Below, piece after piece: positions 29,743 through 62,342 of a DNA stretch of 64,000 bases. The position numbers and the translations under genes are program-made. The stretch's first letter is position 1. The number at the start of each line of letters is the position of its first letter. The stretch is from an uncultured Clostridia bacterium (GTDB taxonomy: Bacteria > Bacillota > Clostridia > Oscillospirales > Oscillospiraceae), in the NCBI GenBank assembly GCA_946412355.1, contig CAMKGX010000004.1, positions 476 through 64,475 of the forward strand, given 5' to 3'. The notes beneath the pieces are model-generated. The model saw nothing but the letters and a program-made list of their open reading frames with translations, searched no databases and had not been told where the DNA came from.

Positions 29743-29754
29743 ATTCGTACCCGG

Positions 29755-29818
29755 CCTTCCCCTCGGGGGGAAGGTGGCACGGCCTGTAAAGGCCGTGACG
29801 GATGAGGGGGCGACGACC
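29755..29818. repeat. CCTTCCC-GGGAAGGTGG...GGATGAGGGGG dispersed repeat
   Basis: Near-copy of 1419-1483 and of 32052-32106. Confidence 0.7.
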
Positions 29819-29910
29819 GCCAACGCCGGATGAATGGTATGCGGAAACGAAAAACATGGGTAGGGGCGGAGATGCCCTCCGCCCCTACGGTTTTTTACTT
29901 TACCGGCCTC

Positions 29911-30621
29911 TCAATACTTCCACCCGCGGCTCTCCTCGTGGAACTCCGCCACCCGCTTGCGGTAGCTGTCCATGGCGGCGTCCTCAAAGGCCAGGGTGTC
30001 GTCCAATCCCAGACGGCGCAGCAGCCATTTGGTCAGCGGCGGGTTAAGAATCAGCAGCGGCCCAATGAGACTGGTGGCCATCAGGCCGCCCCGGCGGAAG
30101 CCCTCGGCGGCGGTGGCGCCGTCCCGGCCCACGCCCCGGACGGCCCGGAACCACGCCTCCGCGTCCCCGGCGCCCTGGATATGGCCGAACAGGGACTTGA
30201 AGCCCACGATCTCCATATCGGCAAAGGTGCCCAGGAAAAAGCTGTTGTGCCGCTGCATCATCCGGTATTTCGCCTGCCCCGGCACCAGCCCCAGGCCGGT
30301 AATGGCCAGGCCGCTGTCGCTGCGGATGCCCTCCGTCAGCATATCCACCGCGTTGCCCACGGCCAAAAACCGTTGTCCCGCGTCGATTTTGGCGGCAATT
30401 TCCTCCCGCCAGGGCATGAGGGCCTCCGTGGCCAGCTTGAGGCCCTGCTCCGTGGTGCTGCCCATAAACACCAGGCCAATGTCCTCGCTTAAAAACCGGG
30501 GCTTCGTGTGCAAGTCCGTCTCCACGATGGTAAGCTGGGGGCAGCAGGCTTTCAGATACCGCACGTTGGCCAGGTCGCCGTACAGGTTGCACACCTCGCT
30601 GAACAATACTTCGATTTTCAC
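29911..30621 (-). CDS. gatD: GatD-like (CobQ-type) glutamine amidotransferase homologue with degenerate active site
   Basis: NLYGD..N N-terminal motif, GLGL, EIVGF, GPLL..NP; GTGA overlap with murT. Confidence 0.8.
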   Translation of the reverse strand: MKIEVLFSEVCNLYGDLANVRYLKACCPQLTIVETDLHTKPRFLSEDIGLVFMGSTTEQGLKLATEALMPWREEIAAKIDAGQRFLAVGNAVDMLTEGIRSDSGLAITGLGLVPGQAKYRMMQRHNSFFLGTFADMEIVGFKSLFGHIQGAGDAEAWFRAVRGVGRDGATAAEGFRRGGLMATSLIGPLLILNPPLTKWLLRRLGLDDTLAFEDAAMDSYRKRVAEFHEESRGWKY

Positions 30622-31997
30622 GCCGCGCCGCCCCCTTTCTCCAGGAGATTCTTCAAATGGGCCTTCACCCGGAAGGCCAGCGGCATGCCGTCCACGCCGT
30701 AGAGAATGTAGACCTGATGGCCGGGCTTGCGCTGCAGCCGCTCCGCCGCCCGGAACTCGTCCTCCTCCACGGTGATCTTCTCCTCGGGGATGCCCGCCAG
30801 CAGCAGCCGCAGCTTATAGTCCCTGGCTCTCGGCCCGGCGCACACCAGCTGCACCACGTCATCCCGGTTCAGGAATTCAAAGTCGGTGTCGTACATCCAA
30901 CTGGGGTTTTCCGACCAGTTTTTGGCCACGCCCATGCAGTTCATCATCACCAGCAGCTCCTTGTCCCCCGCCGTGTGGCGGATGGCGTCGAAGTTGCGGC
31001 TGCAGGCCAGGGCATTTTTGTCCTTGGACATCTGCATGATGATGTCCACGCCGCCCACCGTCTCCCGGCTCAGCCGGGTGGAGAGGATGGCGGTGTGGTC
31101 AAAGCCCTCCCGGATCTCCTCATGGGTGAGGCCCAGCTGGCGCAGGGCGGCAATCACCGTCACCATATTGTAAATATTGTGTACGCCGTCGGCAATGAGG
31201 CGGTAATCGTAATCCTGCCCCGCCTCGGTGAGGGCCATGGTGCCCGATGCCACGTCCACATCGTGGGCGAAATAGTCCGCCGCCGGGGAGGCGAAGCCGC
31301 AGCTTTCGCACACCGCGTGGCCGATGTGGTGGTAGCGGCGGTAGTCGTACCGCAGCTTCCCGGCGCAGCGGGGGCAGATGCGCATATCGTTCAGCAGGTT
31401 TTCGCACTCCTGCACGTCGCCCTCCATGGGCCCGATGGCGAAATAGACCCGGTCATTTTCCGGGGCCACCGTGGCGGAGATGAGGTCGTCGGCGTTGAGG
31501 ATGAGCTTGCTCTCCCTGGGGAAGTTAGCGGTCAGAATGTCGGCGATATAGCCGGGGTGGGCGTTGCGCATGATGCTGTCCCGGAACAGGTTGGTCACCA
31601 CGATATAGTCCGGCTTCACGTAGGGGTAAATCCGGGGGGCGGAGCGCTCGTCGATTTCCAGCACCGCCATGTCGCATTTCGTCCGCCCCAGCAGGTCGCT
31701 GCCGTAGATAAAGGCGGTGCTGACGCCGCTGGCAATGTTGGACCCGGCCCGATTGGTCAGCAGCCGGTGGCCCCGGCGCTCCAAAATGTCCTCCAGCATA
31801 TTGGCCACGGTGGTCTTGCCGTTGGTGCCCGTCACCGCGATCATTTTCGGCGGCCGGGGCACATAGCGCAAAAAGTCGGGGCACAGCTTCAGCGCCAGCG
31901 CGCCGGGAAAGTCCGTGCCGTTGTGATGGGTGATTTTCAGCGCCGGAATGGACAGCTTCGCCGCCCACAGCGCCAGTAAAAACCGTGCTTTACCCAT
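30618..31997 (-). CDS. murT: MurT-like Mur ligase (DUF1727) subunit
   Basis: VTGTNGKTT, NRAGSN, LEIDE, NLFRD, Cys4 finger CPRC..CESC, SWMYDTDFE. Confidence 0.85.
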   Translation of the reverse strand: MGKARFLLALWAAKLSIPALKITHHNGTDFPGALALKLCPDFLRYVPRPPKMIAVTGTNGKTTVANMLEDILERRGHRLLTNRAGSNIASGVSTAFIYGSDLLGRTKCDMAVLEIDERSAPRIYPYVKPDYIVVTNLFRDSIMRNAHPGYIADILTANFPRESKLILNADDLISATVAPENDRVYFAIGPMEGDVQECENLLNDMRICPRCAGKLRYDYRRYHHIGHAVCESCGFASPAADYFAHDVDVASGTMALTEAGQDYDYRLIADGVHNIYNMVTVIAALRQLGLTHEEIREGFDHTAILSTRLSRETVGGVDIIMQMSKDKNALACSRNFDAIRHTAGDKELLVMMNCMGVAKNWSENPSWMYDTDFEFLNRDDVVQLVCAGPRARDYKLRLLLAGIPEEKITVEEDEFRAAERLQRKPGHQVYILYGVDGMPLAFRVKAHLKNLLEKGGGAA

Positions 31998-32051
31998 GGT
32001 GGGTTCCTCCTTGGTCTATCATCACAAAAAACGTGAAAAAACAAACAAAAC

Positions 32052-32307
32052 GCCTTCTCCTCGGGGAGAAGGTGCCCCAGTGCGCACACTGGGGCGGATG
32101 AGGGGGCGTGCGGGCACAGCGCCGCCTGTGGCGGATGAAGCGTGCCCGCCGCAAGGCAGCGGCCCGATTTTCACGGCCCGAAGGGCCTGGAAATCGGTTT
32201 GCCGCAACGAGAGCACGAGGCAGCCTGCCCCGCCGTATGAGGGGGCGACAACCGCCCCGCCGGATGGGGGGCGCGATAACCGCCCCGCCGGATGAGGGGG
32301 CCACAGC
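32052..32307. repeat. CCTTCTCC repeat plus three 27-28 bp tandem units
   Basis: CCTTCTCCTCGGGGAGAAGGTG..GGATGAGGGGG; GCCCCGCCG(G/T)ATG(A/G)GGGGG units starting at 32226, 32253 and 32281. Confidence 0.7.
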
Positions 32308-32321
32308 CGAAGCGCCGCCCC

Positions 32322-43972: not shown

Positions 43973-44761
43973 ATGAGCCTTATGGATGTCAATCCCATTC
44001 TGCGGGAGCATCTGTCGCTGGACAGCGACATCCCGCTGTATACCCAGCTGGTGGGCATCATCAAGCGCAATATCTCCACCGGCGTCATGCAGGTGGGCGA
44101 CCTGATGCCCAGCGAGGCGGAGCTGTGCCGGGCCCTGGGCATCAGCCGCAACACGGTGCGCCAGGCCATCGGCGAGCTGGAGGATGAGGGCTTGGTGGTG
44201 CGCAAGCGGGGCCGGGGCACCTTCGTGGCCGACCCGGCCACCAATCCCCGAGGCGTGCGCTACTCCTTCACCACGGAGATCAACTCCATGGGCAAGACCC
44301 CCAGCAATACCCTGGTGGATTTCCGGGTCATCGAACAGCCGGAGCCCCACATCTGCCAGCGGATGGAGCTGCGCAGCGGCACGCCGGTGTATTGCTTCAC
44401 CCGCGTCCGCAACGTGGACGGCCAGCCTCTGATTTTGGAGACCAGCTACTATCCCCAGTACACCTATCCCCAGCTTTCCCGGGAGCTGGTGGAGACCCAC
44501 AGCTTTTACAGCCTCCTCTACCACATGGGCATCACCCCCTTCTCCGCCGAGGAGAGCTACGAGGCGGTGACGGTGTCCGGCCGGGAGGCGGAGCTGCTGC
44601 AGGTGCCGTCCGGCAGTTGCGCCTTCTACCACCAGCGCCGCACCCGCACCGAGGACGGCCGGGTGTACGAGTACACCTGCAGCTTCATCCGGGGCGACCG
44701 GGTGCATCTCAACGTGAAGATGCAAAAAAGCGGCGTCAGCTTCATGCGCACAGTGGACTGA
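43973..44761 (+). CDS. GntR family (HutC/UTRA) transcriptional regulator
   Basis: PSEAEL, ISRNTVRQA, RGRGTFV, C-terminal UTRA domain. Confidence 0.92.
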   Translation: MSLMDVNPILREHLSLDSDIPLYTQLVGIIKRNISTGVMQVGDLMPSEAELCRALGISRNTVRQAIGELEDEGLVVRKRGRGTFVADPATNPRGVRYSFTTEINSMGKTPSNTLVDFRVIEQPEPHICQRMELRSGTPVYCFTRVRNVDGQPLILETSYYPQYTYPQLSRELVETHSFYSLLYHMGITPFSAEESYEAVTVSGREAELLQVPSGSCAFYHQRRTRTEDGRVYEYTCSFIRGDRVHLNVKMQKSGVSFMRTVD

Positions 44762-44789
44762 CCGTGGCGGACAATGGAATACAGCCAGA

Positions 44790-44819
44790 AGGGAGGAGCA
44801 ACGCTCCTCTCTTTTTTTG
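44790..44819 (+). terminator. Intrinsic terminator
   Basis: GAGGAGC-AAC-GCTCCTC followed by a T-run. Confidence 0.65.
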
Positions 44820-45073
44820 ATAAGAGAAAAGAGAAGAGGGAAGAGAAAAGGTGTCCGCTGCGCGGACGGATTTTAAAGGACGGCATCGCCTTCTCCTTGG
44901 GGGAATGTAAGAGTGCGATAAACGGCGGAAACGATGGGGCACCAATAGGAGGGAAACGATACTGCGCGGGGCAGGCAAAAGAATGGAACGGAGTTCTGTT
45001 AAGAACGAAAGATGCTTTTTTAGCGAAAAGGAAGCGCAAAAAAGCAAGGAATACCGCGGCCTTTCGGGTTTTC

Positions 45074-45320
45074 ATGCCGGAATTTGCCACAGGTTAAAAC
45101 GGAAGAAATGCCGTGTAATGCCGCCGATAGAAAAGGAGGAAAAGCCGGAAAAAGCGCAGCATGGAAACAAACAGAATGCCGGGATCGGCTTACGCAGAAA
45201 AGAGAGAAAATGCCGGGTAATGCTACCATATAAAACGGACAAAATGCCGGAATATCCGCTGGGAATGGGTTCGGCAATTTGTCTAAAACTGAGGACTAAA
45301 TGCCGGAATTTGCCGCTTTA
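45074..45320 (+). repeat. Degenerate 34-bp tandem array with an ATGCCG core
   Basis: Cores at 45074, 45108, 45142 (AAGCCG), 45176, 45210 and 45244; one off-phase copy at 45300. Confidence 0.8.
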
Positions 45321-45406
45321 TACTATCCTGTGAGCGCCTTTGCGGCGGGATGCGCTGCCTGCGCAGCGCACTGTGTGGCGGCGATGGGGGGAGACGAAAA
45401 TCCGGC

Positions 45407-45435
45407 TTGTATAAAATGGCCATTCGTGGTAAACT
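45407..45435 (+). promoter_or_regulatory. Promoter of the DUF4160 pair
   Basis: TTGTAT-17 bp-TAAACT with TGn. Confidence 0.55.
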
Positions 45436-45461
45436 GAAAGCGAGAAAGGCGGGTGTTTTCC

Positions 45462-45734
45462 ATGATGTATCCATTTTTGCAGATCGACGGCGATACGGAA
45501 ATTGTGCACTCTGAAATGCTTCCCGGCGGGGAAGTGAAGGTATATGTAGAGAAGCCTGACGCAAAGGACGGTTTTCATCATGCCACCTGTTTTCTGCCGA
45601 CCTATCGCTGGGAGGACATTCAGGGCTTTTCCGCGAAAGAGATTGACCGGTACCAGGAGGTCATCGAGTCGACCGCGCATTTGATTATGGAGTTTGCACA
45701 GACAGGAGGCTTCGACCATGCCGCAGGTCTTTAA
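45462..45734 (+). CDS. Small acidic protein, putative antitoxin partner of DUF4160
   Basis: MMYPFLQIDGDTEIVHS..VKVYVEKPDAKDGFHHA; AAAGG RBS; overlaps the next gene by 17 nt. Confidence 0.7.
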   Translation: MMYPFLQIDGDTEIVHSEMLPGGEVKVYVEKPDAKDGFHHATCFLPTYRWEDIQGFSAKEIDRYQEVIESTAHLIMEFAQTGGFDHAAGL

Positions 45735-45996
45735 GATCGGCGCCTACTGGGTGTATTTCTGGGCAAATGAGAATGAGCCGTTAGAGCCGGTGCACGTTCA
45801 CATTTCGGAGGGGGCACCGGTGGCGAATGGTACAAAAGTATGGATTACAAAGTCCGGAAAATGCCTGCGGTGCAATAACGACTCTCATATCCCTGAAAAA
45901 GTGCTGCGGAACATCATCAGAGTGATTGAAGCGCGCAGCGGCGAAGTCATCGAAAAGTGGGTGGACTTCTTCGGCGAGGCAACATTTTTTTGTTGA
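45718..45996 (+). CDS. DUF4160 domain protein (putative toxin)
   Basis: YWVYFWANENEPLEPVHVH..TKVWI resembles the DUF4160 motif; GGAGG RBS. Confidence 0.75.
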   Translation: MPQVFKIGAYWVYFWANENEPLEPVHVHISEGAPVANGTKVWITKSGKCLRCNNDSHIPEKVLRNIIRVIEARSGEVIEKWVDFFGEATFFC

Positions 45997-46020
45997 TGCT
46001 GCCCACGTCATGAGCATATA

Positions 46021-46066
46021 AAACCCACCCCCGCTTTCAGAATGAAAGCGGGGGTGGGTCTGTTTT
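46021..46066. terminator. Bidirectional intrinsic terminator
   Basis: ACCCACCCCCGCTTTCA-GAA-TGAAAGCGGGGGTGGGT between convergent genes. Confidence 0.8.
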
Positions 46067-46102
46067 ATGGGAAATGACGGTGCGGCACTTGCCGCCAAAG
46101 AG

Positions 46103-47794
46103 TTATGTTGCGCTTTTTACGGCGCCACCGGGATTGGGCTGGGTACCTTGGCGAGGACTTGCCTGCTGACTGGCTTTGCCTTTTCTTGCAGCGGATTTCC
46201 GCTTCGGTTTTCCGTTCTGCACGAGGCGCGGCTTTGTGGAGAGGGAGACACCGTTGAGACATTCAACAGAAACATGTCCGCCTGGAGGAATGCGAAGGGT
46301 AATGTCAGCAGCAACGGTGCTCCTGGTGTTCGGCGGGCTGAAATAAGTGGTAGAAATCCCGTTGTCGGTGTTGGCAGGCGGCTCGATGATTTTCATGAGC
46401 GGTTGGACTGCCATCTGGGCGATATGCATACGCTTTGCCGCAGCCGGTTCGGTGAAGGAGGTGTAGTGATCGCTGGTGACATCCCCCAACGGCTTACCCT
46501 GCAAAAAATGCACGGTAGCAGGATCGTCTGCCAAGCCGCAGTTGTTTTGCAGGAGAGAATCGTAGGTGTTGAACATGATCCGCTCAGAGACAGCGGATTT
46601 TGGAGCGCGCCAGCAGCGGAATGTTTCCTCTTTTACGCCGATATCGCGCAGCCGCTTATTGGCACATTGCAGGACAACATTGCGGCCCATTGCCTTAGCG
46701 GGATTGGTATCCTGGGAGATAATGGGCATTGTACGCAGCTTTTTCGGCTTGTAACGGCTTTGCAGGCTGCGGTAACGGTCCCTCAGAATCAGCGCCGCCT
46801 GGGGGAAAAGCGGACGGGTATAGTCGTGAGTAGCTCCTGCATTGTTGCTTTTCGTGATTCGCACGCGAGCCAGCGACGCATCACCCGGGTCGAAAAGGAT
46901 GTCGCCCCACACAAGGGCTTCTGAAGGGGGAACACGCCCCCAGAGCATCAGCGCTACACCGCAGTCACACCCGCTGGGCGGATGCTGCATGATTAAGGTA
47001 TAGAGTTCATCGCACATGGTCAGGTCGAGCACTGCGGGATTGGCGGCGCGTGCCTGCAGGAGCTTGGTAGATATCTTTTGCTGTGCGTTGGAGGGGACCG
47101 GGTTGACACCGGTACAAAGCGCTTTTTCCAACAGGTATTTCCAAAACCGATACAGAAGCCGTTGCCCGCGATTGGAGATGTTATCCTTTTTGACGGCGGC
47201 GGCAATTTCCGCCTGGGAGATTTCTCTCATGGCTTTATTGGGCAGCGATGCGCATGTGCTCGTTAAGCGAGAGATATGAGCATCAGCTGTTTTCTGGGAA
47301 GCCTTTTTTCCGTCTTCCAATGTAAACTGCTCGGCATAGAGCTGAGCCGCCTCGGACGGCGTAATCGTTTCCGGCTTGCACACGCCACGAAGCAACGAGT
47401 TCAGCAAAACGGCATTCTCGGCAAATAACCGCTTTGCGGTTTCCTCAATGTGCGACTTCACCGCGTCGACATTGCCGCCGTTAAACTTGGTATCTTTAAA
47501 GACCGCACACTGCTTACAGTGCGGCGTATCTATATTGACATTGCCGTGTTTACGCTGATAACTATTGATCCGCTGGCGCCGCGCCTTGCCAGTCAATTGC
47601 AGCACCTTCCCGCTCTCGGGCGAGAGGACGCTGACGCGGCCAGTATAGTCATATTCCCCGTTGACCTGCTTGGTAATGCTGAATTTAAACGCAACACCGT
47701 TATGCCAGTATATCCCCTTATAATGCTCACGTCCGTCAGCAAGCTGCCGCACATCAAATGTGGTGCGTTTGTTATCCCACTCCTTGTCCGTCAT
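46103..47794 (-). CDS. Tyrosine-recombinase-fold protein, predicted catalytically deficient
   Basis: Box I-like LMLWGRVPPSEALVWGDI, box II-like FLQGK..TSDHY; AGGAGGT RBS 14 nt downstream of the upstream recombinase stop region. Confidence 0.7.
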   Translation of the reverse strand: MTDKEWDNKRTTFDVRQLADGREHYKGIYWHNGVAFKFSITKQVNGEYDYTGRVSVLSPESGKVLQLTGKARRQRINSYQRKHGNVNIDTPHCKQCAVFKDTKFNGGNVDAVKSHIEETAKRLFAENAVLLNSLLRGVCKPETITPSEAAQLYAEQFTLEDGKKASQKTADAHISRLTSTCASLPNKAMREISQAEIAAAVKKDNISNRGQRLLYRFWKYLLEKALCTGVNPVPSNAQQKISTKLLQARAANPAVLDLTMCDELYTLIMQHPPSGCDCGVALMLWGRVPPSEALVWGDILFDPGDASLARVRITKSNNAGATHDYTRPLFPQAALILRDRYRSLQSRYKPKKLRTMPIISQDTNPAKAMGRNVVLQCANKRLRDIGVKEETFRCWRAPKSAVSERIMFNTYDSLLQNNCGLADDPATVHFLQGKPLGDVTSDHYTSFTEPAAAKRMHIAQMAVQPLMKIIEPPANTDNGISTTYFSPPNTRSTVAADITLRIPPGGHVSVECLNGVSLSTKPRLVQNGKPKRKSAARKGKASQQASPRQGTQPNPGGAVKSAT

Positions 47795-47808
47795 GATTAA
47801 CCTCCTGA

Positions 47809-49374
47809 TTAAGACCCGATGGCGGGCTTGTTTTCGCGAATACCGCGGGTATTTTTCGACACGTTGCTTGCCTGAAGCATGGTAACTCCTGTATCACAGG
47901 AGACAGAAATGGTACTGCCCGCCTCTTCGGCGTGGACTGTCAGAGTGAGCATCAGCTCCTCACTGCCGTCATTGACAAGCTTGAACTTGTCATAGGCAAT
48001 ATAATTGACATCCTGGTTTGCACACAGTGAGATGGGCGTCAAGGCAGGATGGTGAGATCCGATGGGGAAAAGGACATCCCGCTCCATCTTGGCGGCCAAA
48101 AGCGCCTGGTTGGAAGGCAGCCTGTAATCCGGCTTTGCGGTGATACTCTTGGAGGACTCGTGCCCCATGAGATAGTCAATTTCGTCCTGTGTCAGACCAC
48201 ACTTGTTGCGCCAACGAGAGGCACAGTCCCGGCGGAGCACATAGGCGGTAACCTCATTGTTGTCCACAGCGTCCTTCTGCGGGTCCAAATAGGCCACGTT
48301 GGATACATCGTCCCAAAAAGTGGGGCTCGCAATAAAAGTGCTGAGGTTAGTCCGCACCCAGGCGGAGAGGTCATCTGCTTTCATCAGCGGTTGTGGAGAC
48401 GTGGGGCGGGTCAGATGGCCAAGACAACTTCGGATGACACTTGTGGGACCGGCGGGGATGACTACGGTGCGGTAGGCGTTGTTGGTCTTGAGGGTGGGAC
48501 ACCGTGCGCTGTCTTTCTCCTGAAATAGAATCGTGACAGTGCAACCGAAGTCTGTAAAGGTAATGTCCGTCCACGGATCCACTCCTGCGGCTTCCGCTGT
48601 TCGCGCGGCCCCGGCAAACATCAGCATGGCGCACAGCGCATGCTTGGGATCGGATTCAGCGGCGGTCTGCAAGAATTCGGCAAATTGCTGCCGCACGGAG
48701 TCGCTCAGTGCTTTGACCTGCTCCGGACGAATAAGCTTGAGCCGATTACGCGACCTGAGCACAATAGTGGGGAGGGTGGGATCCACTCCGCACATGGCGT
48801 CATAGATCTTCTGCGCGGCGGTCAGATTGCTATTGGCGGTGTTAATCACGGAGGACGTGCCGGTGTGGCTGTTGCCATTGTTTGTGATGTCCTGGATGAT
48901 GGCTTGCCGCAGTTCATAACGATCCTGGTCAGTGAAGGGCTGGTTCAGATAATCCTGGAGTCTCGGGAGAATGTTAATTCCGAAATAGGTGAGCCACCGT
49001 TTGGCGACGGTGCTGCGCCACTGAGTCCAATCTTTTGGTTCGGTTTTTTCCAGTTTTCTGAAGCTGAGCGTCATGGCGTTATTTTCGTCCAGGCCGTTGC
49101 TGCTATGGGCGGACTGCTGCCGCGCCTGCACCGGGTGACGCAACGCGGACAGGATAGAGTCCACAAGACTCCGCTTTGCCGAATCGATTGCAGTCGGGTT
49201 ATCGGGGACGCCCCTGCGCGGCAGCGTTTTGGACCCGTCAACCCGCGTTTGCGTTCCGTGCTGTACAGCGTAGCCCTGTAGATTGACCGTGGACCTTCCG
49301 GCTTTGCGGGATATGGTGATGTGAGCATCTACATCCGGCCTTTTGGTCGGTACATTAATTGCATTGATTGCCGT
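47809..49374 (-). CDS. Tyrosine recombinase/integrase, apparently active; start codon uncertain
   Basis: MFAGAARTAEA (Arg), LKT (Lys), YVLRR (Arg), LMGH (His), KPDY (Tyr). AAAGGAGG RBS at 49383-49390 points to a start near 49374; the 794-aa ORF-track call overlaps the divergent gene. Confidence 0.8.
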   Translation of the reverse strand, partial: TAINAINVPTKRPDVDAHITISRKAGRSTVNLQGYAVQHGTQTRVDGSKTLPRRGVPDNPTAIDSAKRSLVDSILSALRHPVQARQQSAHSSNGLDENNAMTLSFRKLEKTEPKDWTQWRSTVAKRWLTYFGINILPRLQDYLNQPFTDQDRYELRQAIIQDITNNGNSHTGTSSVINTANSNLTAAQKIYDAMCGVDPTLPTIVLRSRNRLKLIRPEQVKALSDSVRQQFAEFLQTAAESDPKHALCAMLMFAGAARTAEAAGVDPWTDITFTDFGCTVTILFQEKDSARCPTLKTNNAYRTVVIPAGPTSVIRSCLGHLTRPTSPQPLMKADDLSAWVRTNLSTFIASPTFWDDVSNVAYLDPQKDAVDNNEVTAYVLRRDCASRWRNKCGLTQDEIDYLMGHESSKSITAKPDYRLPSNQALLAAKMERDVLFPIGSHHPALTPISLCANQDVNYIAYDKFKLVNDGSEELMLTLTVHAEEAGSTISVSCDTGVTMLQASNVSKNTRGIRENKPAIGS

Positions 49375-49531
49375 GGGATCGCCTCCTTTAGAAAAAGCTC
49401 TGGTATAGTATAGAACTATTAAAGGCGACAAAGCTAGCCAATCGTTCACTTTAGCGGGGAAGAATGTATTGTGAACCGAGGCAGATGTGGTATACTGGAT
49501 CTGGTAGTGAAAATAAGGGAGGGGAATATAC

Positions 49532-51085
49532 ATGGCAGAATCTATAGAATCTGTGTGGAAACGTGGTGTCGATTGTGAACGTACGGAGCTGCTGGGAATC
49601 GACGGGCTGAATGTACTATCGGGGGATATTGATCCGGTGTTCACAGCTGTCAAGAGCGGTGACAGGGGTTGGTACTGTGATACGTGCAGAGAAAGATTGT
49701 ATGTCAAGGAGTATTCCCGGCGCGATCTGCACGATGTCATCCCCCAATGGGTTTGCGACAACAACAAAGCGTCACCATATGATAGGCTTAAATATTTAGG
49801 ACCCAGATTACTATGCCCCAACTGTAACAAGCGGGTATCACCTAAAGAAGAGTTTGCGGCCCCAAAAGCGCGCTGCACATACAGGATGCAGCAGTATATA
49901 GGCCTGGGGGTGATGCTCTCTCCCATCAGACAAGTCAGAAAGAGCATTGACAACCAGATTAGCATAAGCGGCATCGAGAAGATTTTTTCGGGGTGGCTGA
50001 AAGAATTTGATGCAAAGGTACATGAAAGAATGAAATCGCCCGATGTTCTGGGTGTTTTCGTTATTCGCACGGAGGCAGAGCAGGAGTTAACAATTCTGCT
50101 GGATTGCTGGAGTGGGAATCTGCTGGATATTGTGGAACCGGGCGATGCTGATGCGCTGAAGGACAGGTTAAGTGCGCTGCAGGGTAAAAACAAAACAAAA
50201 GAATTGTTTATTGACCCTTATAACTGGATATATGATGCAGTAAAGGCTGTATACAAAAGGGCGTCCATCAAGATGGCCCCATTGCGTGTATCGGAAACGG
50301 TTCGAAGAGAGGCGTCAGCCGATATTGCGGCGATAGTCCGGAAGAAAGCGGACAGGAAGCTATTTCGGGATGACCCGAAACAGCTATCCCCGAGGAGGAA
50401 GAAGAAAAAGGATTGGTTACAGCAGACAATCCAGGGCCTGGAGGATCTGGAAAAGGGTATCTGCGTGATGGCAGAAGCCGCCAAAAGAGAATCGATAAGT
50501 CCACGTTTGTCTACTTTCTCAAAAAACCTACAGCGCTATTGGCGTAATAACGAGATAGCTATTTCAAACTGTGAAGTTGATAGTTTACCTGACAGCGCGA
50601 TAGATGCCATTCGGACGGAACAGGAAGCTCTTTCCTACACCAACGGATGTGGGCTGCCGGCCTTGCGGGCCCGCACGCTGTACACAGACGCGGCAGAGAA
50701 TTGCTTTAACGACTTCTTCGGCATAGGGGGGGAAAACGGATTCAACCTGAGGAAAATGGATGACGGGATAATGTATAACGCACTGATGAGTTGGGAGCTG
50801 AACAAATCATCACGCTATGTGCCCATTGACATGATCCCCTATTTGATAGCCGCCATTGAGCCGGCGGTTGATGTGCTGAATAGTGAAGGCTCCATGAGAG
50901 AGATGTGCTTCCACCCGGAAAACCGTGACCGGCTGCTGAAAGAAGCATATCAATTCGGATTTCCACAATTGGTTGTAGAGAGAAACCTTGCTGCCGCAAA
51001 CAGGCTGATTCGACAGCAACGCAGAAACAGACGAGGGGACGCAATCGAAAGAAGCGCATGGACAGAAGAGGACTGGCAGAAGTGA
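49532..51085 (+). CDS. ISL3-family transposase-derived protein with degenerate DDE motif
   Basis: CxxC..CxxC zinc finger (CDTC, CPNC), KARCTYRM, LGVFVI, LDIVE, FIDPY, LRARTLY; GGAGG RBS. Confidence 0.72.
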   Translation: MAESIESVWKRGVDCERTELLGIDGLNVLSGDIDPVFTAVKSGDRGWYCDTCRERLYVKEYSRRDLHDVIPQWVCDNNKASPYDRLKYLGPRLLCPNCNKRVSPKEEFAAPKARCTYRMQQYIGLGVMLSPIRQVRKSIDNQISISGIEKIFSGWLKEFDAKVHERMKSPDVLGVFVIRTEAEQELTILLDCWSGNLLDIVEPGDADALKDRLSALQGKNKTKELFIDPYNWIYDAVKAVYKRASIKMAPLRVSETVRREASADIAAIVRKKADRKLFRDDPKQLSPRRKKKKDWLQQTIQGLEDLEKGICVMAEAAKRESISPRLSTFSKNLQRYWRNNEIAISNCEVDSLPDSAIDAIRTEQEALSYTNGCGLPALRARTLYTDAAENCFNDFFGIGGENGFNLRKMDDGIMYNALMSWELNKSSRYVPIDMIPYLIAAIEPAVDVLNSEGSMREMCFHPENRDRLLKEAYQFGFPQLVVERNLAAANRLIRQQRRNRRGDAIERSAWTEEDWQK

Positions 51086-51105
51086 TATAGCCGGGGCATA
51101 CAGAT

Positions 51106-51154
51106 AAAAACAGCGGGCCGGGTGAGCAGAGATGCTCTCCCGGCCCGCTGTTTT
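51106..51154 (+). terminator. Intrinsic terminator
   Basis: AAAACAGCGGGCCGGG..CCCGGCCCGCTGTTTT. Confidence 0.8.
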
Positions 51155-51253
51155 GCGGAGACCGACCTACTGATACTATATTTAATATAGCGTATGTCAC
51201 GTAAAACTGGGCTGTGCAGCAGCAAAATGATTCAAAAAAGCCAAAAAAAGTGC

Positions 51254-51282
51254 TTGCAATAGGGGACACATAGTGTTATAAT
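51254..51282 (+). promoter_or_regulatory. Strong sigma-A promoter upstream of the serine recombinase unit
   Basis: TTGCAA-17 bp-TATAAT with TGn. Confidence 0.7.
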
Positions 51283-51599
51283 AGGGTAAAAGAAAAAAGT
51301 GCGGCAGCAAGAGGGGGCGGCAACCCCCACTTGCCTGCATAGGTGAAGTGAGCACCTACACAGCAGAAATGAATCTGCACCGCACCTGTAGTATATTCTT
51401 TTTTCGCTTCGTTTGCAAGGGGGGAAAGGGTATGCGAAGGGACGGGGCAGTATGTGCACCGTGTAGGACTGACCTGCACGGTTTTTCTTATTTCTTCGGA
51501 AAGGAGGTTCGTCCGGCCTGCGGGGGCAGGCTGGGCAGGTATGTTTGCCGGCATACCTTCATATGTTGGAACAACAAAACGCATATGGAGGGTATCATA

Positions 51600-51704
51600 A
51601 TGAAACGCAAAGACACGACGACCTATCGCGTTACGCGTCACTTTGAGGGGACCCGCTCCGCCAGGGAGGTAGTGGCGGCGCTGGTCAGGACCCACAGCCG
51701 ATAA
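51600..51704 (+). CDS. Small (34 aa) protein coupled to the serine recombinase
   Basis: GGAGG RBS; MKRKDTTTYRVTRHFEGTRSAREVVAALVRTHSR*; stop 4 nt before the recombinase ATG. Confidence 0.6.
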   Translation: MKRKDTTTYRVTRHFEGTRSAREVVAALVRTHSR

Positions 51705-51708
51705 GCCT

Positions 51709-53319
51709 ATGGGTACGAAAGATACATACCGCGTCGGGCGCTACGCCCGACTTTCCCGGGAGGACGGGGACAAGCTGGAGAGCGACAGCATCGTCAACCA
51801 GCAGCGGGTGATAGAGGACTACTGCGCGGTCCATGCCGGGCTGGTCATCGTAGAGGACTATGCGGACGACGGCTTTACCGGCACCAACTTTAACCGCCCT
51901 GCGTTCCGGCGGATGCTGGACGACATTGAGAAGAACAAAATCGACTGCATCGTCGTGAAGGACCTGTCCCGTTTCGGCCGTGACTATATCGACATGGGCT
52001 ACTACCTGGAGCGGTACCTGCCCAGCCGGAATATACGGTTCATTGCCATCAATGACAATGTGGACAGCCTGAATGGGCCCTATGACATGCTGCTGCCGCT
52101 GAAGAACGTCTTCAACACACAGTACGCCAAGGACATCTCCGGGAAGGTGCGGAGTGCCTTCCGCGTCAAGCAGCAGCGGGGCGAATTCGTGGGCGCCTTT
52201 GCCTCCTACGGCTACCAGAAGGACCCGGAGAACCACAACAGGCTGATGGTTGACCCGGTGGCAGCCCGGGTGGTTTTGCGGGTGTTTCAGATGGCAGCCC
52301 AGGGCATCGGGCAGGTGCGCATTGCCAAGACACTGAACGAGGAGAAGATTCCCTGTCCCAGTGAGTATAAGAAGATGATGGGCATGAAGTACTGCAACAA
52401 CCACCGCCTGGAGACCACCCGGTACTGGACCTACGCCACCATTCACCGCATGCTGACCAATGAAATGTACGCGGGTGCCATGGTGCAGAACCGCAGTGTG
52501 CGGCCCACGATGCACGGCAAGGCAAAGGCGCTGGATAAGAAGGACTGGGTGGTGGTGGACAATACCCACGAGGCCATTATCTCCCGGGAGCTGTGGGACA
52601 CGGTGCAGGCGCAGGTGGCCAAGAATGGCCGGGAGATCGACTTCCAGGGCAACCTGGGCCTGTTCGCAGGCTTTCTGTTCTGCGGTGATTGCGGACGGGC
52701 CATGGTCAAGACTATTTGGGGCAAGAAGACCACCTACTCCTGCGGCTCCTACCGCCGGTATGGGGCGACGGTGTGCAGCAGTCATTCCACGCCTATGGAA
52801 ACGCTGGAGGCCATCATTCTGGCGGACCTGAATCGCATTATCGCAGAGGTGAAGGATCTGCGCCAGGTGGCGGAGTCGTGCCGGGAGGAGAGCCCCCTGC
52901 AGGCGCGGCGCTCGTCCGAGCAGCAGCGTCTTACCGCCGCCTTGACACGGGTGCAGCACCTGAAGAAGGGCGCCTATGAAGATTACAAGGAGAACCTGCT
53001 GTCCCGGGACGAGTATCTCCGCTATAAGGAGGACTACGACAAGCAGGAGGCGTCATTGCAGGGGCAACTGGCTCAGCTGGCGCAGCAGGAGGACCCTCAA
53101 GAGCTTTTGCAGGAGCCCTGGGTGGACCAGCTCCTGCGGTTGGGCTGCCTCACAACGCTGGACCGGGCGACCCTGGCGCAGACGGTGAAGGAAATCCGGG
53201 TGTTTGAGGACAAGCACATCGAGATTACCTACCTCTTCTCCGACGCGCTGCGGGTGCTGTTGGAAAAACCCGGCGAGGAGGAGGGACAGGCCGCCCGCGA
53301 GGAGAACTGCACACCTTAA
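51709..53319 (+). CDS. Large serine recombinase (resolvase + recombinase + zinc-ribbon + coiled coil; TnpX/TndX-like)
   Basis: YARLSREDG (catalytic Ser), SIVNQ, DDGFTGTNFNRPAF, VKDLSRFGRDY, FCGDCG..CGSY..CSSH. Confidence 0.93.
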   Translation: MGTKDTYRVGRYARLSREDGDKLESDSIVNQQRVIEDYCAVHAGLVIVEDYADDGFTGTNFNRPAFRRMLDDIEKNKIDCIVVKDLSRFGRDYIDMGYYLERYLPSRNIRFIAINDNVDSLNGPYDMLLPLKNVFNTQYAKDISGKVRSAFRVKQQRGEFVGAFASYGYQKDPENHNRLMVDPVAARVVLRVFQMAAQGIGQVRIAKTLNEEKIPCPSEYKKMMGMKYCNNHRLETTRYWTYATIHRMLTNEMYAGAMVQNRSVRPTMHGKAKALDKKDWVVVDNTHEAIISRELWDTVQAQVAKNGREIDFQGNLGLFAGFLFCGDCGRAMVKTIWGKKTTYSCGSYRRYGATVCSSHSTPMETLEAIILADLNRIIAEVKDLRQVAESCREESPLQARRSSEQQRLTAALTRVQHLKKGAYEDYKENLLSRDEYLRYKEDYDKQEASLQGQLAQLAQQEDPQELLQEPWVDQLLRLGCLTTLDRATLAQTVKEIRVFEDKHIEITYLFSDALRVLLEKPGEEEGQAAREENCTP

Positions 53320-53499
53320 GGGCAGCGAACAGCTGCCCCAAAAGGACGGCAGGATGCGCAACCTGCTATTTTCAACAGAAGAAAAGGATGGGTGCGGTGA
53401 GAAAGAAAACCGTTTCTCGCCGGGCCCAAATAAAGGTACATATAGGGGACACATAAGCGAGGGCGTGTGCCCAGATAATATGATAAGGAGGTAATACAT

Positions 53500-53859
53500 A
53501 TGAAACGTCACGGTAAACAAGCAAACGCAAGGCTGTATCACTTCGGCAGGAGGGAGAGCAGCACCACCGCTCCGGCTGGGTGGGGGAGGGAGCGGATGAT
53601 GCTCTCGGGTGGGCTGGATATGGACTGTCGTAGCCGCGGCGCATTCACGGCTTGGGGGGTACCTGAAGCTGATAGGGTGAGCCTGTACCGGCAGGGCTGT
53701 GTGCTGACGGGAGGAGGTGCGGCGTAAAAAACGAATTTGCACAGCATTGACAATCTGTTTACTCTGGCAGAGCCGCTTGGCGTTACCGTGGGTAAAATGA
53801 TTGCGAGAAAACACTATTGCAACGGCAGAGAGGGGCTGTTCCCCTCCCGCACACAATAA
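53500..53859 (+). pseudogene. Possible decayed XRE-type HTH gene (in-frame TAA at 53725-53727)
   Basis: AAGGAGGT RBS and ATG 53500; the same frame after the stop reads HSIDNLFTLAEPLGVTVGKMI, resembling the C-terminal helices of XRE HTH domains. Confidence 0.35.
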
Positions 53860-53885
53860 TAATTTACGAGAGAAGAGGTAAGAAA

Positions 53886-54857
53886 ATGAGCATTATGGAC
53901 GATTATCAGAATAGCCAGAAGTTTTTCTTTGGCATGGCCGGTGGTTATAACGCCTTCGACGTGTGCGCCGCCTTCATCCTGGAGGAGGTGCGGCTGTATC
54001 GGAACAAGAACGGCGGGCAGAACATGGTGTGCACGCTGCGGAACTGCAAGGGCGCCATCGCCGGCATCTGCTTTGATTACTGCGGAGAGTTGGATGAGTC
54101 CAGCGCCGGCACCCCTGTGATGGTGCAGGGTAGGATGGGCTCCTACAAGGGCGCGCCCCAGATTCGGATTATCGACATCTGGCCTCTGGATGCTGACGAC
54201 GCGCAGAACGACATCCGGACGCTGCTGCCCCACGGGTTGTTGTCGGGGGAAGAGGGGTTTAAGACGTTCCGGGATGCCATGGTGGCGAAGATCCAGGACG
54301 GGGACTATCTCCTGTTGTGCAAGGCGTTGGTGGACGAAAACAAGGAGGTGTTCAGTTCCTGCCCGGCGTCCACCGGCAGCCATCACGCCTGCGTGGGCGG
54401 TCTGCTGACCCACACCTTCGAGGTGATGGAGTGGGCGTATAACTTCGCTGAATACTACAATGATACCTATGACTTTGGCATTGACAAAGAGCTGCTGACT
54501 GCCGGGGCGGTGCTCCACGACATCGGCAAGGTGCGTGAGTATGGCTTTGACAGCACCGGCGCGGCAATGCGGCCCACGGATGCCATGAAGGAGAACGCCC
54601 ATGCGCTGGAGGGCGCCATGATGATTCGGGAGATGGCCCAGGAGCTGGGCACGCCGGAGGATAAGGCAAGGAAGCTGGAAAACCTGGTGGCCAGCCACCA
54701 CACCGCCTATCCGTTCCGCGTTGGCGTGAGCCCCATCACGCCGGAGGCCAAGCTGCTGGCGGTGGTGGACAACCTGGACAGCAGCGTGAGCAGTAACTTC
54801 GGTAAGGACGTCACTTTTTTGGAGGGCAAGCCGGTGCACACCGGAGACGTAGCGTGA
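53886..54857 (+). CDS. YhaM/CBF1-like OB-fold + HD-domain 3'-5' exoribonuclease family protein
   Basis: HHACVGGLLTHT, GAVLHDIGKVREY, HALEG, ASHH, DNLD; GAGGT RBS. Confidence 0.85.
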   Translation: MSIMDDYQNSQKFFFGMAGGYNAFDVCAAFILEEVRLYRNKNGGQNMVCTLRNCKGAIAGICFDYCGELDESSAGTPVMVQGRMGSYKGAPQIRIIDIWPLDADDAQNDIRTLLPHGLLSGEEGFKTFRDAMVAKIQDGDYLLLCKALVDENKEVFSSCPASTGSHHACVGGLLTHTFEVMEWAYNFAEYYNDTYDFGIDKELLTAGAVLHDIGKVREYGFDSTGAAMRPTDAMKENAHALEGAMMIREMAQELGTPEDKARKLENLVASHHTAYPFRVGVSPITPEAKLLAVVDNLDSSVSSNFGKDVTFLEGKPVHTGDVA

Positions 54858-54890
54858 GGGGCCGCGGGAATGTGTATAACGGGATAATCA

Positions 54891-54921
54891 TCGTGGAGGG
54901 CTGCACAGCAGTCCTCCACGA
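54891..54921. terminator. Strong hairpin between the HD gene and the CRISPR trailer (likely terminator)
   Basis: TCGTGGAGG-G-CTGC-ACA-GCAG-T-CCTCCACGA. Confidence 0.55.
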
Positions 54922-54936
54922 AATCAGTTATCGACT

Positions 54937-55434
54937 ATTTGAGACCCCTACAGAATTACACTGCTCTCAAACGTTCAGGCTCTTGCCCACGTTTCTGCCG
55001 AGGTTTGAGACCCCTACAGAATTACACTGCTCTCAAACGACCATTTGTTGACCACGGCACAATTTTCCGTTTGAGACCCCTACAGAATTACACTGCTCTC
55101 AAACCCCGCGACCATGCTGATTTTGAAAAGCGCCGTTTGAGACCCCTACAGAATTACACTGCTCTCAAACCACCTCACAGCTGCAGGCATACGTTTGCAA
55201 GTTTGAGACCCCTACAGAATTACACTGCTCCCAAACTCACGGGCAGTATCAGCCAGCGGGATATGGGTTTGAGACCCCTACAGAATTACACTGCTCTCAA
55301 ACCGTGATTTATTTACCCCTGCTGCGATTGCCGTTTGAGACCCCTACAGAATCACACTGCTCTCAAACGTTGACGGCCTTTGCTAATAGGCAAAGGGAGT
55401 TTGAGACCCCTACAGAATTGCACTGCTCTCAAAC
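54937..55434 (-). CRISPR. Type II-A CRISPR array: 8 repeats of 36 bp, 7 spacers of 30 bp
   Basis: Repeat (minus sense) GTTTGAGAGCAGTGTAATTCTGTAGGGGTCTCAAAC at 54937, 55003, 55069, 55135, 55201, 55267, 55333 and 55399 (66-bp period); terminal repeat at 54937 is degenerate. Confidence 0.98.
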
Positions 55435-55508
55435 CTCAAATCCTGACCTACGTCGGGAAAAGCGGGCTGTACCGCCGGGGCTTGGAGGCATACAGGGTCT
55501 CAAATCCG
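55435..55508 (-). promoter_or_regulatory. CRISPR leader ending in the ATTTGAG leader-anchoring motif
   Basis: Minus strand reads GGATTTGAG immediately before the first GTTTGAGAG repeat, as in many type II-A loci. Confidence 0.8.
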
Positions 55509-55670
55509 TCAGCAAATTTCGCAGAGGGACTCGTCTACGATGTACCTCTGCTCTCCGGGCAGCTTTGCGTGTTCGCAGCTGTCCAGCAGAACAGCATTAT
55601 AACCGTGCCGGAGCGCAGAATCAAGAAACAATTCTGCATCCCGGTCGGCAATCAGACTGCGCCAGCTCAT
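55509..55670 (-). pseudogene. cas1::csn2 in-frame deletion scar (53 codons)
   Basis: ATG overlaps the cas9 stop and reads MSWRS (type II Cas1-like start); the rest, ..ELFLDSALRHGYNAVLLDS..RYIVDESLCEIC*, resembles a Csn2 C-terminus. Confidence 0.8.
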
Positions 55671-59731: not shown

Positions 59732-59732
59732 C

Positions 59733-59761
59733 TTGACAACCTCCCTAAACCGTCGTATTAT
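59733..59761 (+). promoter_or_regulatory. tracrRNA promoter
   Basis: TTGACA-17 bp-TATTAT directly upstream of the anti-repeat. Confidence 0.75.
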
Positions 59762-59768
59762 GACCATG

Positions 59769-59889
59769 CAGTTTGGTAGACCCCTACAGAATTGCGCTGT
59801 GAGTTCAAATAAAAGTTAACTCAAACCGTTGGGCTTGCCCAACCGCACAGTGTGTGCACGAAGGACTTCTTCAGTGAAGTCCTTTTTTT
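59769..59889 (+). ncRNA. tracrRNA
   Basis: Anti-repeat GTTTGGTAGACCCCTACAGAATTGCGCTGTGAGTTCAAAT, nexus-like AAATAAAAGTTAACTCAAACCG, two hairpins, then terminator AAGGACTTC-TTCAGT-GAAGTCCTTTTTTT. Confidence 0.9.
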
Positions 59890-60104
59890 ATTTCTCAAAC
59901 AGATGCGGGGTTTTCGCATCCCTGTGGTATTTCTCTTATTTTAGCATATCAATTCGATAATATCTTCTTTTCGTTTTATATCACTTCTTTCGATACTATT
60001 ATAACCATCACATTCCAACGACACAAGAGACAAAGACCAAAAGCTTAGATACAAATGAGATAAACAATCACGTAAAAAGTATTATTTTGAAAAGCCATCT
60101 ACAA

Positions 60105-60146
60105 GCAAGAGCCCGACAAATCGAATGGGATTTGTCGGGCTCTTGC
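60105..60146 (-). terminator. Long hairpin terminating the LacI fusion gene
   Basis: GCAAGAGCCCGACAAATC-GAATGG-GATTTGTCGGGCTCTTGC. Confidence 0.75.
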
Positions 60147-60158
60147 TATTTGTACACT

Positions 60159-62084: not shown

Positions 62085-62249
62085 ACGAATGCCCCCTTCA
62101 AACCATTGGGAAGTCTGTTCTTTTGTATCATCTTACATGAACTTTCTGCACTTGTCGAGATGATTTTTAAATCATTGGGCAAAATAAACAATTTTATTAG
62201 ATGGATTTACTTAAAAACATAGAAATTGAGGTCGAGACTGAAATCGTAC

Positions 62250-62278
62250 TTGAAAACAACGTCGCAGTTTGCTAAATT
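62250..62278 (+). promoter_or_regulatory. Promoter of the ribokinase-ABC operon
   Basis: TTGAAA-17 bp-TAAATT with TGn. Confidence 0.55.
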
Positions 62279-62342
62279 GAAGATGTAAAATGATTTTAAT
62301 AAAATAATTTAACAAGAATTACTGAGGAAAGGATGCCTGCCT

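Follow-up and report, generated by a model that had tools for sequence, protein, structure and literature searches.

A MurT/GatD-like gene pair without the glutaminase catalytic residues in an uncultured Oscillospiraceae bacterium

MurT and GatD form the lipid II isoglutaminyl synthase, which in Staphylococcus aureus carries out the glutamine-dependent amidation of lipid II D-Glu. Amidation of this residue, the second of the stem peptide, is important for efficient transpeptidation in those species that have been studied, and MurT/GatD is being pursued as a target for drugs (PMC6085368, PMC6113224). A gene pair of this type is found in DNA from an uncultured Clostridia bacterium (Oscillospiraceae; assembly GCA_946412355.1, contig CAMKGX010000004.1, positions 476-64,475, forward strand), a stretch of 64,000 nt that is referred to here as the window. 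Like the MurT/GatD proteins of known structure (S. aureus 6gs2, 6h5e, 7q8e and 5n9m; Streptococcus pneumoniae 6fqb; Streptococcus pyogenes 9sq9), the pair has a murT-gatD operon and the MurT architecture, but the residues with which GatD hydrolyses glutamine are replaced. Judged from its sequence, the pair encodes a functional ATP-dependent ligase of the MurT type, together with a partner of the GatD fold that would be incapable of glutamine hydrolysis.

The consequences of such replacements are known from S. aureus mutants. GatD C94G fully loses glutamine-dependent lipid II amidation; MurT with GatD-C94G has full NH3-dependent activity at pH 8.5, for which GatD is still required, and NH4Cl is not used by the S. 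aureus enzyme at pH 7.5 (PMC3266927). The GatD substitutions C94A, H189A and R128A cause loss of glutaminase activity (PMC5871853). GatD C94S abolishes activity in vitro, and MurT D349N severely reduces activity (abolishes it, according to the figure legend) with fold and stability unaffected (PMC6113224).

Residues lost and retained in the two proteins

Positions 29911-31997 are occupied by two overlapping open reading frames on the minus strand, as are all motifs, the ribosome-binding site and the terminator-like hairpins given below. The murT-like gene (30618-31997) encodes a protein of 459 aa with a Mur-ligase central domain, a Cys4 zinc ribbon and a MurT_C domain. The gatD-like gene (29911-30621), directly 3' of it, has a GTG start, with which the MKIE... 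start of its homologues is consistent, and encodes a protein of 236 aa whose fold is that of a class I amidotransferase, with the catalytic Cys and His missing. Its start codon shares 4 nt (GTGA, 30618-30621) with the end of the murT-like gene, indicating translational coupling.

The GatD-like protein is barely above the cut-off of Pfam GATase_3 (PF07685; 27.8 bits, cut-off 27) and far below those of the NCBIfam GatD equivalogs (43 and 37 bits, cut-offs 450 and 400; the models used for MurT and GatD were NF052463, NF045636, NF052464 and NF045635). Its closest solved structures are S. aureus and S. pyogenes GatD (HMMER E-value: ~1e-6). In HMMER alignments to the solved S. aureus structures, with positions counted by hand, GatD Cys94, Gly95, Gly96 and Gln98 correspond to Gly89, Asn90, Ala91 and Asp93, and His189 corresponds to Ile186. 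Gly89 belongs to the former nucleophile elbow, FLAVGNAVDML (30337-30369), which reads T-G-N-[AS]-x-[ED] in the family described below and C-G-G-[YF]-Q in canonical GatD. Ile186 belongs to the former His loop, TSLIGPLL (30052-30075; [IL]-G-P in the family, H-G-P in canonical GatD), while FKSLF (30187-30201) has Lys-Ser-Leu at the canonical F-E-N-H site. A first-pass annotation of the window had already read these three changes from the letters; the strings are as it gave them and the alignment agrees, with no Cys or His at the catalytic positions. The CobQ/CobB-type GATase_3 domains belong to the same Pfam family, but keep both Cys and His and are fused to synthetase domains of their own.

The fold itself appears intact. 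An AlphaFold2 model built on 68 family members has a predicted local distance difference test (pLDDT) score of 97.5 and a predicted template modelling (TM) score of 0.93. Its top PDB matches are all GatD chains, the best being 5n9m of S. aureus (TM 0.85, root-mean-square deviation 2.7 Å). In the model, Gly89 lies at the junction of strand 85-87 and helix 89-95, which is the nucleophile elbow, and residues 213-228 form the C-terminal helix that is specific to GatD. No invariant or near-invariant Cys, His or Ser column exists among 68 diverse family members, so no displaced nucleophile is seen. Cys26 was considered as an alternative nucleophile and rejected, being conserved among close relatives only.

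Several parts of the old glutamine site are kept. The NLYGD loop (30574-30588) corresponds to S. aureus Tyr17 and to the Asn28-Thr29-Tyr30 plug and Asp32 of S. pneumoniae (PMC5871853, PMC6085368). Arg124, in RHNS (30241-30252), is placed by multiple alignment at the glutamine-sequestering Arg128 of S. aureus (PMC5871853), in a column with the same residue in at least 85% of both canonical and Cys-less GatDs; the pairwise alignment, unlike the multiple alignment, offsets the two by one residue. Gly54 and the E-G motif at 173-174 are likewise common to both kinds. Since the catalytic-site replacements, the NLYGD loop and the Arg are all conserved, the GatD-like protein looks like more than a passive scaffold. 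The annotation's view that GatD is kept as a structural subunit thus holds as to its retention and probably says too little about its role.

This conservation could also mean that the pair still depends on glutamine or another amide, through a different catalytic apparatus in the conserved pocket. The old pocket is the best-conserved part of the protein, and Asn90, Asp/Glu93 and Lys142-Ser143 are new conserved residues beside the retained Arg, NLYGD and E-G. A hydrolytic role is highly improbable all the same: no Cys, His or Ser column is conserved family-wide, the mostly conserved Thr88 is Val in the window protein, Lys142-Ser143 is absent from the other Cys-less groups and no known amidase triad fits.

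The ligase half is much closer to its known counterpart. The MurT-like protein matches Pfam MurT_C (85.3 bits, cut-off 25) and Mur_ligase_M (47.4 bits) and is similar to S. aureus MurT 7q8e (E-value: 2.9e-56), although it too is far below the NCBIfam MurT equivalog cut-off (204 and 181 bits, cut-off 800), so that neither protein of the pair reaches the cut-offs for its type. Its residues were compared in 80 loci, whose motif-selected alignment biases them to T-Y-L-[LI]-G-P forms. The ATP P-loop GTNGKTT (31809-31829) has its Lys (Lys61 here) in 80/80 MurT-like proteins. Equally invariant (80/80) are EIDE (31647-31658), whose Glu114, Asp116 and Glu117 correspond to the Mg and acceptor-carboxylate ligands Glu110, Asp112 and Glu113 of S. 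pneumoniae, the acceptor-binding Asn87 of GSN (31737-31745; S. pneumoniae Asn85) and the four Cys (Cys208, 211, 230 and 233) of the zinc ribbon CPRC...CESC (31299-31376). The adenine residues Asn136, Asn274 and Asn277 and the hinge Arg308 are also present, and across all of these ligase positions (roles after PMC6085368) the column residue is the same in 73-80 of the 80. The ATP motif, the Cys4 zinc finger and SWMYDTDFE, which the annotation called intact, are all found. With its GatD fold, extra C-terminal helix, NLYGD loop and Arg, the pair thus retains the frame of a canonical MurT/GatD together with all ATP, Mg and acceptor residues.

In the MurT-like protein, the interface and active-site loop NLFRDSIMRNAH (31557-31592), equivalent to S. 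pneumoniae loop 135-143, reads R-D-S-x-x-R-N-A-H in the family and R-D-Q-x-D-R-Y-G-E in canonical MurT; Glu143 has become His and the aromatic residue Asn. At WSENPSW (30897-30917), where canonical MurT has D-G-R-D349-x-S-W, S. aureus Arg348 and Asp349 correspond to Glu363 and Asn364 (HMMER); Asp349 is the third residue of the triad that the two subunits form together. The annotation was right that Asp349 itself is lost, but the acid is not simply gone: Glu363, one residue before, is invariant (79/80). The DNAAD motif is replaced by CMGVAKN. In the S. aureus structure DNAAD occupies a concavity between the triad of GatD and the ATP site, with Asp349 coming after it along the same backbone (PMC6113224).

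The nearest non-MurT relatives are peptide ligases. The next-best NCBIfam match of the MurT-like protein is pMurC (85 bits), an archaeal pseudomurein peptide ligase whose structure 6vr7 is matched with an E-value of 7.6e-18. With these enzymes and with MurC-F the protein shares central-domain motifs and, presumably, ATP-dependent acyl-phosphate chemistry. Unlike the amino-acid-adding MurC-F ligases, it has no match to the UDP (uridine diphosphate)-binding N-terminal domain and has a GatD-fold partner; their loop Asp-His motif reads Asp-Ser, with a His six residues later.

Gly89 and Asn364 are the very residues of the laboratory knock-out mutants C94G and D349N. These mutants, together with H189A, support the earlier claim that the complex cannot hydrolyse glutamine. 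Unlike the laboratory changes, those in the window are natural and ancient and come with further conserved substitutions in both subunits.

Distribution, descent and selection of the Cys-less family

A search of 5.8 billion proteins with the GatD-like protein gave 656 matches. The best 120 of these (59-94% identical) all have Gly89, Asn90, Asp/Glu93 and Ile/Thr/Leu186, and among 121 close homologues 71 of the 236 columns show a conservation of at least 97%. Representatives of 50%-identity clusters, searched exhaustively with HMMER, yielded 117 clusters at E ≤1e-30. Among 133 full-length rows taken from the best 150 (down to 29% identity), nearly all intact rows share the replacement motifs, namely T-G-N-A-x-E/D at the elbow, [ILT]-G-P at the His site and G-F-K/R-S-Q-F at the Glu-Asn-His site. 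When each GTDB species, represented by one genome, was scanned with the peptide pattern [AGC]TYL[LI]GP[LIF]L[VI], which excludes the canonical H-G-P, and the relatives were confirmed, the Cys-less family was placed in at least 565 species. The Cys/His-less form is thus widespread, being kept by hundreds of species of anaerobes. The nearest named record among the matches listed is from a Vescimonas metagenome-assembled genome (MAG; 68% identity); others listed are from Oscillospiraceae, Papillibacter, Acutalibacter, Neglectibacter timonensis SN17, Eubacterium nodatum ATCC 33099 and an Erysipelotrichaceae MAG, and most of those listed come from human, rabbit, chicken or ruminant gut. The NCBI-sourced cluster members are without names, and the protein atlas labels the family only as 'CobB/CobQ-like' or 'hypothetical' proteins of Bacillota. 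Literature searches of partial coverage found no description of a Cys-less MurT/GatD, and the parts seen of a 229-sequence MurT/GatD phylogeny make no mention of such a form.

The two halves of the signature travel together. A MurT-like gene directly precedes or abuts the GatD-like gene in every locus with sufficient upstream DNA, and these partners read W/S-S-E-N-x-x-W (Glu in 79/80, Asn in 69/80) where canonical MurT has D-G-R/T-D-x-S-W. The same Cys-less signature is found in natural single-chain MurT-like::GatD-like fusions of 698-758 aa (P0164, P0207, P0218 and P0242). Canonical pairs of the same phylum and class have C-G-G-Y-Q, F-E-N-H and H-G-P in GatD and R-D-Q-x-D-R-Y-G-E and D-G-R/T-D-[IV]-S-W in MurT. 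Three Cys-less groups can be distinguished: A, which includes the window pair; B, which reads G-F-[IV]-N-K-C-S; and D, which is small and keeps E-N-H or a similar string. All share T-G-N-[AS]-x-E in GatD and R-[NQ]-[AG]-H in the MurT interface loop, so that the Glu-to-His and Tyr-to-Asn changes of this loop accompany the loss of the GatD Cys in every group. Each also has an acidic residue at or beside the Asp349 position (Glu363 in A, Glu at 349 itself in B and Asp in D). The window pair carries the family signature as VGNAVD, IGP and RNAH.

A maximum likelihood tree of 97 GatD rows was rooted on the CobQ and CbiA domains of the window genome. All Cys-less rows fall on one side of a branch with a Shimodaira-Hasegawa-like approximate likelihood ratio test (SH-aLRT) value of 94, and the rows of group A form a clade (96). 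The canonical clade includes two half-dead GatDs (L136 of genome G473 and L141 of genome G468), which are paired with fully canonical MurT motifs; one keeps Cys with His changed to Asp, and the other keeps His with Cys changed to Asp. Given this branch and the position of the half-dead proteins, the Cys-less signature is best read as one ancient, co-inherited change, probably of single origin, and not as the three independent losses first proposed. The pair can thus be classified, on these alignments and this tree, as a member of an old, species-rich sister family of the canonical lipid II isoglutaminyl synthase.

Carriers have this family instead of the canonical enzyme. The window genome (2.06 Mb, 96.5% complete) has one MurT_C match, and no second or canonical MurT or GatD was found in it at that completeness. 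Its other GATase_3 matches were rejected as GatD, as they are CobQ and CbiA-like genes on contig 37. In a sample of 300 genomes from the same class, canonical GatD is present in ~137 (canonical-model score of at least 126 bits) and Cys-less GatD in at least 23 by motif and perhaps 33 by score; the remainder have neither kind. No genome holding both was found among the typed genomes of this sample. Within the window's genus, a match exists in 23 of the 24 species sampled: the orthologous pair of group A in 20, a match truncated at the end of a contig in one, and a pair of group B in its stead in two. In the last two (L167 of genome G610 and L168 of genome G603; GFVNKASQT, MurT YFTSETSW) the group B pair replaces the group A orthologue, which suggests an exchange of pair types within the genus. 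Most sampled genomes of sister families in the same order lack any MurT/GatD, so the trait is patchy above the genus level.

A non-functional remnant, or a purely regulatory pair without a ligase product, would also lack the glutaminase residues. The GatD-like protein is indeed less constrained relative to its partner than canonical GatD is: the GatD/MurT identity ratio at matched MurT divergence is 0.9-1.08 (~1.0) in group A and 1.15-1.39 in canonical pairs, a rough estimate in which some canonical MurT sequences are clipped by 1.5-kb flanks. Conservation about equal to that of the partner fits the loss of one function and the retention of another. Little weight at all can be given to a remnant, as both frames are intact and translationally coupled, the ligase catalytic residues are conserved, the pair is kept in 23 of the 24 species of the genus and throughout the wider family, and the natural fusions carry the same signature. 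With the substitutions fixed in a large family, 71 of 236 columns at least 97% conserved, the GatD-like protein as conserved as the MurT-like one and the pair being the sole copy in its genome, the evidence supports a selected, changed function and not decay, as the first-pass annotation had supposed.

Candidate amine donors and acceptor

A working scheme for the pair can be outlined. The MurT-like protein would bind ATP and lipid II and, through its family-invariant residues, activate the D-Glu alpha-carboxyl as an acyl-phosphate, as is thought for canonical MurT. By homology to the published mutants, glutamine would yield no ammonia. The acyl-phosphate would be attacked by a directly bound amino compound (an amino acid or diamine), and the remodelled MurT loop, which in the S. 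aureus complex of known structure touches the active site of GatD, would serve this attack. The GatD-like protein would be an obligatory partner and may itself bind a ligand. Such direct ligation of an amino compound to the D-Glu alpha-carboxyl of lipid II is the reading favoured here, with a probability put just short of even.

The main clue to a donor comes from relatives. A gene for diaminobutyrate--2-oxoglutarate transaminase (dat; NCBIfam NF006733: 582.8 bits, cut-off 438; TIGR02407: 553 bits, cut-off 552.2) abuts the pair in 6/80 loci, in three gene arrangements. It lies downstream of the gatD-like gene in L027, L041, L063 and L065, upstream of the murT-like gene in L044 and upstream of a gatD-like gene in the two-pair locus L028 (Oscillospiraceae), whose dat-adjacent pair branches beside the window's clade. 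In L027, dat and the pair form a three-gene cassette between rplU and trpS-obg. In L044 (16-4380; a MAG of 30% GC), the row is dat, murT-like, gatD-like and an alanine-racemase-like gene (201 bits, cut-off 168). Within the 300-genome sample, dat is above its cut-off in four genomes, with one further copy clipped by a contig end. Of these five genomes, four, each from a different GTDB family, carry the Cys-less pair by motif (hypergeometric p ~6e-4 at a base rate of 33/300, not corrected for kinship); the fifth has canonical GatD, and its dat lies inside a nonribosomal peptide synthetase/polyketide synthase cluster. In the dat-linked relatives, the donor is probably 2,4-diaminobutyrate. Diaminobutyrate in peptidoglycan is reportedly known from the group B walls of Schleifer and Kandler, in which the diamino acid is on the D-Glu alpha-carboxyl, the same carboxyl that MurT activates. 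One genome with two Cys-less pairs has a murE-dat operon (L146; G579:C26:220745-224992) whose MurE reads EDPS at the DNPR position, a motif other than that of the meso-diaminopimelate (mDAP) type; this suggests diaminobutyrate at position 3 of its stem peptide.

Other features of the family point the same way. Two divergent Cys-less pairs are present in five genomes or loci (L028, L050, G579, G596 and G613), an arrangement that would be superfluous were ammonia the donor for all of them. Ahead of S-E-N, the MurT loop is invariant in each clade and varies in sequence and length from clade to clade; that of the window's clade, M-N-C-M-G-V-A/S-K-N-W, is without the acidic residues present in many other clades. 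Both the clade-specific loop and the presence of pseudomurein peptide ligases among the nearest non-MurT relatives point to an amine other than ammonia. As to the arrangement of the double pairs, those of two Oscillospiraceae MAGs (L028:2701-8261 and L050:3977-8229) are in tandem, in the order dat, gatD-like 1, murT-like a, murT-like b and gatD-like 2; L050 has no dat match, and the second pair branches near the base of group A. Within the window's genus, L169 (G613:C38:10500-20000) contains two group A-like pairs, with ~3 kb between them and on opposite strands, and L166 (G596:C5:3000-8000) has a group A pair and a very divergent extra pair (VTGNAQLLFG; MurT loop RNGN).

A number of observations weigh against direct ligation, especially for the window organism. 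Apart from the pair itself, nothing is universal among the 47 group A loci left after dereplication (4-kb flanks), no other neighbour occurring in more than nine, and ~87% of the dereplicated family loci are bare two-gene units. The dat co-occurrence counts are small and take no account of kinship, and no clean correlation was found between MurT loop type and dat presence or MurE type. The window genome has no diaminobutyrate transaminase, and adjoining its pair there is no racemase, no extra ligase and nothing that names an amine. Its MurE has the mDAP-type motif DNPR, and mDAP is the diamino acid recorded for the related genus Faecalibacterium (PMC11382707). The wall is thus probably mDAP-type and cross-linkable without a bridge on D-Glu. 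The GatD pocket is ~20-40 Å from the MurT ATP site in the S. aureus structures (PMC6113224), so that an amine bound there could not react directly. Finally, the use of free ammonia by the C94G mutant at pH 8.5 (PMC3266927) means that a simpler route exists.

That simpler route would make the pair an ammonia-dependent isoglutaminyl synthase with the same D-isoGln product, drawing on free NH3/NH4+ of the ammonia-rich gut. The GatD-like protein would be retained since MurT is inactive without GatD, and might serve as an ammonium entry port. This is the chief alternative, judged less probable than direct ligation but not far behind it. The C94G mutant carries the identical residue; the new acids at the old active site (GatD Asp/Glu93 and MurT Glu363) and the invariant His of the MurT loop could bind and deprotonate NH4+; an identical product would spare the transpeptidases re-adaptation; and the bare two-gene loci, mDAP-type MurE and missing transaminase noted above are all as expected. 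A precedent by analogy is vertebrate carbamoyl-phosphate synthetase I, which retains an inactive glutaminase module (Cys replaced) and uses free ammonia, although its synthetase is unrelated and the module is a fused domain. Ammonia leaves unexplained, however, the dat linkage, the two divergent pairs per genome, the clade-specific MurT loop and the retained Arg and NLYGD elements of the glutamine site, and the failure of the S. aureus enzyme to use NH4Cl at pH 7.5 also argues against it.

The same chemistry might alternatively be directed at another acceptor than lipid II D-Glu, such as the mDAP epsilon-carboxyl, the C-terminus of the stem peptide or another envelope polymer. Two-pair genomes could then serve two sites, and DNAAD, which is proposed to engage stem residue 3 (PMC6113224), is the motif replaced by CMGVAKN. 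A new acceptor is nevertheless unlikely: the acceptor Asn, the Mg ligands and G-T-x-x-P-G near the N-terminus can all be aligned with those of canonical MurT, and the carriers lack the canonical enzyme, suggesting substitution in the same role. In one subclade (L030, L036, L037, L039, L042, L049, L062 and L080) rlmN and the genes for a PP2C phosphatase and a PASTA-domain Ser/Thr kinase come after the pair; this conserved wall-sensing gene group fits a wall role and is uninformative on the site.

As to the two donors offered by the first-pass annotation, ammonia or another amine, the dat linkage and the double pairs tilt the family towards the latter without settling the matter for the window organism. 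In its fullest form, direct ligation is proposed more tentatively still. The family would attach an amino acid or diamine to the D-Glu alpha-carboxyl of lipid II (2,4-diaminobutyrate in the dat-linked lineages), giving cross-bridges of the group B type, or branches on D-Glu, in a considerable fraction of the Clostridia of the gut, rumen and mouth. The GatD-like protein would be a glutaminase turned substrate-binding or gating module, and in the window's genus the substituent would be added to an mDAP-type wall.

Flanking sequences and significance for the wall

The pair sits between an mnmG-like gene and a convergent ileS-like gene. A ribosome-binding site, AAGGAGG (32006-32012), lies 8 nt upstream of the murT-like ATG. 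One terminator-like hairpin (32053-32072) separates the upstream mnmG-like gene from the murT-like gene, and another with a T-run (29860-29888) lies directly downstream of the gatD-like gene; because the two hairpins bracket the pair, it is regarded as a two-gene unit of its own. An Rfam search of both flanks gave only sub-threshold matches, at these hairpins. Both intergenic flanks (29750-29830 and 32050-32320) contain a G-rich repeat, GGATGAGGGGGC, present in five copies in the window where one is expected, and hairpins of the CCTTCCCC...GGGGAAGG type. The repeat looks like a widespread element resembling the repetitive extragenic palindromic (REP) type. Four RNA libraries made from animal gut metagenomes (three labelled RNA-Seq PolyA and one bovine-gut metatranscriptomic) include contigs that cover the pair at 90-99% identity; these are not counted as expression, as contigs cannot show transcription and DNA carry-over is possible. 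In such contigs the flank-repeat stretches have a depth 10-100 times that of genes, and two contigs connect 29824/29826 with 32108/32219 on opposite strands. Elsewhere in the window, GC content falls from ~0.64 to 0.47-0.58 across the final 20 kb (44000-64000).

The stem peptide's second position is within the minimal muropeptide motifs for two innate receptors, NOD1 and NOD2, and the peptidoglycan chemotype is unrecorded for most gut Clostridia, Oscillospiraceae included (table, PMC11382707). Literature searches of partial coverage found no gene assigned to substitution of the D-Glu alpha-carboxyl, and the pair described here is a concrete gene candidate for it. It also provides a clear example from nature of how a catalytic subunit has become a conserved non-catalytic partner. 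In about one in ten sampled genomes of the class, a MurT/GatD predicted to be incapable of using glutamine replaces the normal one, which points to a modification of the wall, or at the least a nitrogen source for it, that has gone unrecognised in abundant commensals.

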